From: Escherichia coli
Lineage (GTDB): Bacteria > Pseudomonadota > Gammaproteobacteria > Enterobacterales > Enterobacteriaceae
Assembly: GCF_003334315.1 (NCBI RefSeq)
Contig: NZ_QOWR01000100.1
DNA length: 4,320 nucleotides
Reading direction: 5' to 3' (one strand)
Position 1 is the first letter of the stretch, and every line of letters starts with the position of its first letter. The notes under the pieces are model-generated. The model worked only from the letters and a program-made list of their open reading frames with translations, did no database searches and was not told the origin of the DNA. The position numbers were made by a program, and so were the translations under genes. Shown here one piece after another: positions 3,748 to 4,320 of this stretch.

Positions 3748-3771
3748 TTAATCAATGAAAAGGGATGCGTT

Positions 3772-4290
3772 ATGAAGTGTTTCTGGGCTTGCTCAGTCTC
3801 AGTAGTTTTGGTTATGTCATTTACAGTCGCTTCTGCGGAGAACATTACACACACAAAACCGTTAGCCAGGAGCGACTTATATCTTACCTGTAAAGGTTAT
3901 CAGGTGAAGGGGGCGTCTGTAATTAACGTCGAGAAACCTTCTTACCTTGAAGGTACAGGTGAGCAGGTTGAGTTTGCAATCATTTCTCTCGGTGATGCAT
4001 CTGATGGACTCAAGGTTTTTTTTGATTCATGGGGTTTTTCTCCTTTTGGATTGATTGAAAGTCATGTAATGCATGAGCACTGGTCTTTAGTTCATGTTGG
4101 GGGGCGTGTTTCAGTCAAGGGTGAAAAGATTGATTATTCATTTGTAGATAACCAGCCACAGGAGGGTGGGAGCTATAAACCCAAAACAGGTGTGTTCCTG
4201 TATGGCTGCATTAACTCTGATAAAAGGCCATCTTGGGTCGAAAAAATCTACACAAGAACAGGCGTGTTTCGAGGGGGCATAGAAGACTAA
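3772..4290 (+). CDS. Hypothetical secreted (periplasmic/exported) protein, 172 aa, Sec signal peptide; function unknown
   Basis: Full ORF. N-terminus MKCFWACSVSVVLVMSFTVASA|ENI is a typical Sec signal with an A-S-A cleavage motif. GAAAAGGGA lies upstream of the ATG. The start is only 24 nt after the mbeA stop on the same strand. The mature protein has two Cys (possible disulfide) and a His cluster HVMHEHWSLVH. The region is AT-rich relative to the backbone (not separately counted for this gene). Confidence 0.7.
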   Translation: MKCFWACSVSVVLVMSFTVASAENITHTKPLARSDLYLTCKGYQVKGASVINVEKPSYLEGTGEQVEFAIISLGDASDGLKVFFDSWGFSPFGLIESHVMHEHWSLVHVGGRVSVKGEKIDYSFVDNQPQEGGSYKPKTGVFLYGCINSDKRPSWVEKIYTRTGVFRGGIED

Positions 4291-4320
4291 AATACTGCGT
4301 ACAGCATGAAAATTCATTGA

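Follow-up and report, generated by a model that had tools for sequence, protein, structure and literature searches.

A GC step beside mbeA in the ColE1-type plasmid pK as a seam between mosaic modules

The 4,320-nt stretch of Escherichia coli DNA considered here (contig NZ_QOWR01000100.1; "the window" below means this stretch at its full length) is a complete circular ColE1-type plasmid, pK, of 4,245 bp, written with a 75-bp overlap. Its guanine-plus-cytosine (GC) content falls abruptly at the 3' end of the relaxase gene mbeA. We propose that this step, at 3721-3724, is the seam at which the GC-rich MOB-HEN relaxase operon meets a 580-bp accessory module rich in adenine and thymine (AT). The module, in what we call slot 1, consists of a replacement seven-codon tail of mbeA and an open reading frame (ORF) of 172 codons, ORF172, and fills a gap that is empty in ColE1. 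pK itself would have formed by the joining of two blocks, at the core of its cer-type Xer recombination site and in the spacer between the replication origin and the origin of transfer (oriT). Such a pattern would be expected from the published model in which recombination events at Xer sites and at oriT shape the evolution of ColE1-type plasmids. The size of the step would reflect the juxtaposition of two atypical compositions, with mobilization (mob) genes 3-6 standard deviations (sd) above host genes and accessory genes 4-6 sd below them.

Taken as a whole, this account of an ordinary mosaic seam, two accessory modules, and an Xer/oriT pattern is in our judgment likely to be correct. It departs from the original prediction, which read the low-GC DNA as one cargo that came from a low-GC donor and was inserted exactly at the edges of the plasmid backbone.

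Results

The compositional step

The GC step is real. The 60-nt blocks on which the original prediction was built were reproduced, at 71.7% GC (2281-2340), 45.0% (301-360), and 33.3% (481-540), and in 40-nt windows GC falls from 0.55-0.68 to 0.35 across 3700-3760. A circular two-segment likelihood fit yields a high-GC arc (1189-3723, 60.4% GC) and a low-GC arc (42.7% GC), with a log-likelihood ratio of 64.8 for the change-point at 3723; in 100 shuffles this ratio averaged 5.5 and never exceeded 11.0. Fitted base by base, the change-point is best placed at 3721 and has 2-log-unit support over 3685-3744; the switch had been placed near the mbeA stop codon (3745-3747), and its support indeed lies 3-62 bp before the end of that codon. 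Sliding-window GC and codon usage had been named as the checks on the boundary, and both reveal a difference, the codon scores being -3.0 sd for ORF172 and -3.8 sd for ORF195, the second accessory gene, relative to 42 E. coli K-12 genes.

These 42 reference genes come from a 50-kb stretch of the K-12 chromosome and have a GC content of 52.2 +/- 2.1% and a GC content at third codon positions (GC3) of 56.5 +/- 3.5%. By this measure GC is displaced by -4.4 sd in ORF172, by -5.8 sd in ORF195, and by +3.3 to +5.9 sd in the mob genes. The step owes its size to deviations in opposite directions on its two sides, the mob genes lying above the host and the accessory genes below it, and about half of the contrast is due to the mob genes. 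GC3 is 0.40 in ORF172 and 0.36 in ORF195, and in the mob genes it ranges from about 0.60 to 0.80, with mbeA at 0.60 and mobC, mbeB, and mbeD at 0.75-0.80.

Could the contrast be a matter of coding constraint with no history behind it, produced by overlapping frames and Arg/Ala/Gly-rich Mob proteins on one side and by Ser/Thr/Asn/Lys-rich exported proteins on the other? The genes mbeB and mbeD do lie nested inside mbeA, GC at the first codon positions of mbeA is 0.715 whereas its GC3 is near that of the host (z = 1.1), and the MOB-HEN relaxase is reported to be GC-rich across Enterobacterales (PMC8683028). However, the GC3 of the two accessory genes falls below the host mean as well as below mobC, mbeB, and mbeD, their non-coding flanks are AT-rich too (34.7% GC at 863-980 and 33.3% at 3748-3771), and the position of the step is also that of a genuine presence/absence breakpoint. 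Coding constraint thus seems to us a quite improbable explanation of the step.

The junction after mbeA and the empty site

Base-level comparison with two relatives (L007 and L008) places the loss of homology at 3723/3724. This breakpoint precedes the end of the mbeA stop codon by 24 bp, is no more than 3 bp from the GC step, and separates two codons of mbeA. With the break marked by a hyphen, the MbeA protein ends in QRQ-KGFELGM in pK and in QRQ-RTYNGPSL in L008, and the ColE1 protein ends in LDGPSLGW. The slot-1 module accordingly begins with the last seven codons and the stop codon of mbeA (KGFELGM and stop) and continues with ORF172. Homology is lost at 3722-3726 in L007, L008, and many other plasmids; the closest ones without ORF172 were found in Klebsiella, Enterobacter, Citrobacter, E. 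coli, Pantoea, Salmonella, and Erwinia. When the 3' end of mbeA and the first half of ORF172 (3450-4050) were used as a query, 2,640 plasmid records matched, only 61 of them with at least 80% of the query covered, and the ORF172 region (3748-4320) matched only 80. The view that the AT-rich DNA is accessory and variably present is therefore upheld.

Comparison with related plasmids had been suggested as a means of defining the empty site, and ColE1 supplies it. In ColE1 the mbeA stop codon (3733) is followed directly by cer accessory sequences and then by the core (3909-3938), the region to which pK 59-238 aligns. Because mbeA abuts cer there, ColE1 represents an empty slot 1, relative to which pK carries a 580-bp module. 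L008 and L007 hold other AT-rich cargo in the same slot (43.8% and 39.5% GC, respectively), and both L008 and ColE1 regain homology with pK in the cer accessory region. Neither direct nor inverted flanking repeats were found around the slot-1 module or around the ORF195 module (slot 2) in pK.

At the far edge of the low-GC DNA, a sharp switch next to the RNA II promoter had been claimed. In homology the claim holds: the slot-2 module has breakpoints at 238/239 and 972-980 against L002-L005 and L008, homology resumes at 973-980 in five of seven relatives (at 1020 in L006 and 1061 in L007), and the 972/973 break lies 8 bp upstream of the putative -35 hexamer. In composition it does not, as GC rises gradually from 0.375 to 0.555 across 800-1400 and the best estimate of the edge, 1184, has a support interval of 948-1257. 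The low-GC arc is moreover broken by a stretch of 49-52% GC at about 61-274, the cer site; it is composed of the slot-1 module, the cer site (~50% GC), and the slot-2 module.

Two linkage blocks

Four relatives (L002, L003, L005, and L006) are 98.3-100% identical to pK over oriT and mobC, mbeA, the ORF172 module, and cer, and only 78-87% identical over the origin segment. The 2,576-bp plasmid pUGA14_3 is ~99% identical to pK across 188-973, that is, the Xer core and the ORF195 module, and over 940-1535, which covers the 5' flank of ORF195, RNAII/RNAI, and the origin, it has 0-3 mismatches per 40-nt bin, after which the two sequences diverge. By these alignments, oriT, mob, ORF172, and cer (1768 round to 238) form one linkage block, and the Xer core, ORF195, and the RNAII/RNAI origin (188 to ~1535) form a second. 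In all likelihood pK is a mosaic in which these blocks meet at the Xer core on one side and in the origin-oriT spacer (1536-1767) on the other.

An alternative is that the whole AT-rich arc, from 3748 round to ~980, is one cargo that arrived from a low-GC donor in a single insertion between the backbone edges. It draws on the AT-richness and atypical codon use of both ORF172 and ORF195, on the coincidence of both outer edges of the arc with homology breakpoints, and on the variability of the arc among relatives. However, the conserved cer site at 59-238 splits the arc in the middle, and the two genes have different partners, ORF172 being linked to mob and cer and ORF195 to the RNAI/RNAII replicon. 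Their distributions differ as well (80 plasmid records for ORF172 and 43 for ORF195), and the block linkage contradicts a single event. Named homologues are almost all from Enterobacterales, with ORF195 found also in high-GC Xanthomonadales, and all other cargos in both slots are equally AT-rich. The idea of one cargo thus does not survive, and we consider a single insertion very improbable. The reading we prefer remains the two-block mosaic.

Two further observations concern the limits of the second block. A break in pUGA14_3 at 973/974, to which a BLAST average of 88.9% identity over 974-1837 could point, was ruled out by the binned mismatches, as the match extends to ~1535. The origin-oriT spacer is different in every relative compared, with both of its flanks conserved or identical; it occupies the position of rop in ColE1, and pK has no rop gene.

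The cer-type Xer site

The core at 211-238 reads GGTGCGCCCAA-GGGATG-TTATGGTAAAT (XerC arm, central region, and XerD arm). It is unique in the window, was matched 0 times in shuffles, and is the only Xer core in pK, no second one being found at up to 3 mismatches. The ColE1 core, as read from its record, is GGTGCGTACAA-TTAAGGGA-TTATGGTAAAT, so the central region is 6 bp (GGGATG) in pK and 8 bp (TTAAGGGA) in ColE1. In cer hybrids, 6-bp spacers relax the bias toward intramolecular resolution and would favor cointegrates. Upstream of the core, pK 59-210 aligns with the accessory region of ColE1 cer (ColE1 cer, 3734-3938), a stretch that is conserved in relatives, and both plasmids have a palindrome within this region, TGCATGGCTATGCA at ~100-113 in pK and TGCATAGGTATTCA in ColE1.

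It is at the XerD arm that shared sequence ends. Matches to the cer region among plasmid records typically start at ~75-188 and end at 238-242, and this end is found in nearly all of the cer-type matches listed, which were drawn from 569 matching plasmids. L002-L006 share mob, ORF172, and cer with pK and carry five different second cargos, with homology stopping at 238-241. In all relatives with other cargo, the last base of the XerD arm is the end of homology.

Two relatives show variations on this site. L005 (NZ_AP027606.1) has its Xer site at ~3034-3061 and a second Xer-like site, GGTTCGTCGTCGAGATGTTATGGTAAAT, ~850 bp downstream, the two bracketing an extra cargo gene. At 685-712 of L006 (NZ_CP040323.1), the XerC arm and central region of pK are followed by a different XerD arm, TTATGTTCAAT; this variant arm would be consistent with the outcome expected of a crossover within the core.

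Part of the core also recurs elsewhere. The motif AAGGGATG(N0-4)TTATG occurs exactly twice in the window, in the Xer core (220-232) and at the ribosome-binding site and start of ORF172 (3760-3774). Such a pair was seen in 0 of 200 shuffles, and the ORF172 copy lies 36 bp inside the slot-1 junction. An equivalent of the XerC arm is absent at the ORF172 start, where the megaplasmid copy described below reads AAGGGAGGTGTTATG. A chance coincidence of a Shine-Dalgarno sequence and an ATG codon is more likely here than a relic Xer site.

Low GC and the question of a donor

A low-GC donor is not what the composition points to. The alternative cargos of the two slots are as AT-rich as those of pK (eight of eight, at 35.8-46.1% GC), and in ColE1 the mob region has 55% GC compared with 34-42% in the colicin region. 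Homologues of ORF195 occur in Rhodanobacter and Dyella. The chromosomal homologue on a Dyella ginsengisoli contig (4001-4609), ~53% identical, adjoins a gamma-glutamyltranspeptidase gene; it has 61.6% GC and a GC3 of 0.74. The ORF195 family thus appears, from these sequences, to take on the composition of its resident replicon. The averages given for Enterobacterales in PMC8683028 are 52.8% GC in the ColE1 origin, 57.7% in the relaxase, and 53.0% in the genome. Accessory DNA in ColE1-type plasmids is generally AT-rich: such a composition marks DNA as accessory and is silent on a particular donor or on recency. What lies behind the AT bias of accessory genes is something that we infer rather than observe.

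ORF172 and its age

ORF172 has a predicted Sec-type signal peptide, cleaved between VASA and EN. Its invariant residues include two cysteines and many aromatics. There are 24 homologues, none with a Pfam domain, most of them on plasmid-sized contigs; those that are named come from Enterobacterales (Yersinia, Klebsiella, Salmonella, Pantoea, and Nissabacter) and from one Vibrio cholerae record. An exhaustive profile search found nine cluster representatives among 1.84 billion proteins and added no distant relatives. Nothing significant was found in Pfam, NCBIfam, or PADLOC, and the profile had no match among PDB sequences; the one family matched, phrog_31425 of PHROGs, is of unknown function. 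AlphaFold2, run with 15 homologues, gave no usable model (mean predicted local distance difference test score, pLDDT, of 31).

The start of the gene lies 24 nt downstream of the mbeA stop, both genes are on one strand, and no terminator was found in the gap; co-transcription with the mob genes is plausible on this arrangement. In the 4,018-bp lineage represented by L004, the ORF172 module is 92.6% and mbeA 93.0% identical to pK. The proportions of synonymous (pS) and nonsynonymous (pN) differences between the two copies of ORF172 are 0.182 and 0.035, for a pN/pS of 0.19, a sign that ORF172 is under purifying selection.

A more distant copy is present on a 213-kb conjugative IncFIB plasmid of Klebsiella pneumoniae (NZ_CP031790.1), where positions 5865-6617 hold a 750-bp ColE1-type relic. 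It is 84% identical to pK and runs from window position 3621 inside mbeA through the junction and ORF172 to position 127 in cer; ORF172 is frameshifted in a run of T, and the fragment has 42.9% GC. The relic is found in at least seven of the Klebsiella megaplasmid records listed, and 14 conjugative plasmids were counted among the matches of the search. By its structure, the fragment is what remains of an integrated ColE1-type plasmid and no source of ORF172.

A recent insertion is likewise at odds with these comparisons. The junction is kept in copies that are 92.6% and 84% identical, and the module has diverged in step with mbeA; AT-richness has been kept through long co-inheritance with a neighbor of 60% GC, so low GC is no sign of recency. 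Recent capture of ORF172 by the pK lineage from a larger replicon is highly improbable: the 84%-identical copies in IncFIB Klebsiella megaplasmids and the 33%-identical homologues in two Klebsiella phage-plasmid records might suggest it, but the megaplasmid copy is frameshifted and lies between the 3' end of mbeA and the 5' part of cer, which indicates the reverse direction, and the parallel divergence of module and mbeA also speaks against it.

A role for ORF172 can be imagined. Because of its Sec export, its linkage to the mbeA tail through 16% divergence, the purifying selection, and the lack of a terminator after mbeA, ORF172 might be an unrecognized periplasmic part of the MOB-HEN mobilization or exclusion apparatus, in which case the AAGGGATG and TTATG pair could be a relic of Xer capture. 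We regard this as a long shot.

ORF195 and the replicon

The ORF195 module is found on various backbones, including plasmids of 2.6-3.2 kb. ORF195 has a lipobox, ISGC, with an invariant Cys18, and its AlphaFold2 model (mean pLDDT 87) predicts a beta-sandwich followed by a C-terminal helix. Searched against the PDB, the model had no match below an E value of 1e-3 and only generic beta-sandwiches above it; in AFDB its fold matches are many, all of them uncharacterized proteobacterial lipoproteins. Neither ORF195 nor ORF172 resembles Exc1 or Exc2 of ColE1. In NZ_CP135230.1 (5,073 bp), pK is extended by 828 bp, annotated as an IS26-family transposase, at ~489. IS26 is 820 bp long and makes an 8-bp target duplication, and by its size the extra DNA is consistent with IS26 inserted inside ORF195.

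The replicon is ColE1-like, with an antisense RNAI and an origin homologous to that of ColE1 (72.6% nucleotide identity between pK 974-1856 and ColE1 598-1556). Among plasmids with 99% identity in the mob block, the RNAI/RNAII control region at 981-1180 is the most divergent part of the backbone, and mismatches there reach 35 per 40 nt at 1140-1179. Such divergence would fit an exchange of incompatibility determinants or their diversification.

Plasmid layout

In a megablast search of 72,556 plasmid records, 11 plasmids matched the whole window with 99.9-100% identity. Ten of them are 4,245 bp long and the other is 5,073 bp, and they include NC_003456.1, plasmid pK of Salmonella enterica serovar Enteritidis. 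Literature searches on plasmid pK returned only unrelated vectors with pK names. Because the two ends of the window are identical, ORF172 and the interval 3748-4320, with which the original prediction was concerned, wrap across the arbitrary start of the plasmid (Table 1).

Table 1. Features of pK in window coordinates
Feature	Position	Strand	Details
Terminal redundancy	4246-4320	.	Identical to 1-75
ORF172 accessory module (slot 1)	3724-4303, circular 3724-4245 + 1-58	+	~580 bp, 42.6% GC
ORF172	3772-4290	+	172 aa, predicted Sec-type signal peptide, orphan family
GC change-point / homology breakpoint	3721-3724	.	Likelihood fit and homology loss in relatives
mbeA relaxase gene	2251-3747	+	Start MIVKFH...; mechanical ORF start 2200; GC 60.5%
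mbeB	2939-3424		Nested in mbeA, other frame
mbeD	3428-3643		Nested in mbeA, other frame
MobC-family relaxosome protein gene	1938-2261	+	64% GC; RefSeq annotation of pK
Start of conserved putative oriT (bom/nic) block	1768-1830	+	Alignment and mismatch table of relatives
cer-type Xer site	59-238	+	Accessory sequences and core; GC ~49%
Xer core	211-238	+	XerC arm GGTGCGCCCAA, central GGGATG, XerD arm TTATGGTAAAT
ORF195 accessory module (slot 2)	239-972	.	734 bp, 40.1% GC
ORF195	275-862	-	Predicted 195-aa lipoprotein
ColE1-type replication control region	973-1535	+	Putative RNA II promoter and RNAI
RNAI	1022-1122	-	Rfam RF00106, 99.2 bits vs gathering score 47
Putative RNA II promoter	-35 TTGAGA 981-986, -10 TAATCT 1004-1009	+	Read from sequence, 17 nt apart

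The order of oriT, then mobC and mbeA with nested mbeB and mbeD, is that of a MOB-HEN/MOBP5 module. RefSeq names MobC, MbeB, and MbeD families in pK, and the MOB-suite type is MOBP. We take 1768-1830 to be the start of a putative oriT block, given its likeness to the bom sequence of pBR322 and ColE1. MOB-HEN relaxases have an H-x6-E-x-N metal-binding motif in place of a three-histidine motif, and a candidate for it can be read in the MbeA translation as WVEHQDKGRLELNF, with E at +7 and N at +9 from the H. No recombinase gene is present among the ORFs of pK. A scan of the window with the sigma-70 consensus returned no promoters anywhere, the RNA II hexamers included, so the transcription units are putative.

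Discussion

The breakpoints, the block linkage, the composition, and the purifying selection on ORF172 come directly from the comparisons made here; that Xer and relaxase enzymes made the joins is what we would infer from them. Both PMC8683028 and PMC6764390 cite Tran et al. (2012) and Zakharova et al. (2002) for recombination at oriT and at cer/Xer sites in ColE1-type plasmids. Several points weigh against our reading, however. Random recombination together with purifying selection alone would also leave breakpoints at the edges of functional modules. The second join can be placed in the variable spacer but not at the nick itself, and at 3723/3724 there is no recognizable recombination site, repeat, or target duplication. 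The base-by-base comparison, finally, covers only seven or eight relatives, with the other counts taken from BLAST tables.

The finding agrees with established knowledge of ColE1-type plasmids, and the record of pK was deposited long ago. Its value is in part that of an example, as pK provides a clean worked case of two-block Xer/oriT mosaic architecture. A ColE1-type plasmid normally carries AT-rich accessory DNA next to its GC-rich mob block; a GC step in a small plasmid is a reliable mark of a module seam and is not to be read as recent insertion from a low-GC donor. The analysis also flags two widespread plasmid-borne proteins of unknown function, ORF172 and ORF195, both predicted to be exported.

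Comparison with known systems

The closest known system is pK itself. NC_003456.1 and the identical 4,245-bp plasmids of E. coli and Salmonella have the same genes in the same order as the window, which differs from them in nothing of substance, being rotated and written with the 75-bp overlap.

With genomic islands and Xer-bounded (pdif-type) modules, pK shares AT-rich, variable accessory DNA beside an Xer site. Like an island, the accessory DNA deviates from host and flanks in composition and codon usage and is present or absent among relatives, with an empty site in ColE1 and other cargo in L007 and L008. It differs from such islands and modules in that an integrase, a tRNA, flanking repeats, and a second Xer site are all absent from pK; the mobility signature of an island (direct repeats, terminal inverted repeats, and an integrase or transposase) was not found in pK, nor was flanking by two Xer sites as in pdif modules. 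In Acinetobacter, pdif modules are bracketed by inverted Xer sites, whereas the pK module has no such bracket.

ColE1 (NC_001371.1) shares with pK the RNAI/RNAII replicon, the oriT-mobC-mbeA/B/D operon, and a cer site directly downstream of mob, along with AT-rich cargo after the XerD arm and the contrast between a GC-rich backbone and AT-rich cargo. The two plasmids are nevertheless only ~71-77% identical at the nucleotide level (70.9-77.5% in the mob region). ColE1 has rop and pK does not; no gene lies between mbeA and cer in ColE1, whereas pK has ORF172 there; and the cargo of ColE1 consists of exc1, exc2, and the colicin E1 operon.

A further likeness is to the Xer/oriT recombination model. 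In pK the oriT-side join would lie in a hypervariable spacer. As the model would have it, the boundaries between the blocks of pK fall at the Xer core and beside oriT, the cargos that follow the XerD arm differ, and a variant of that arm occurs in one relative, L006.

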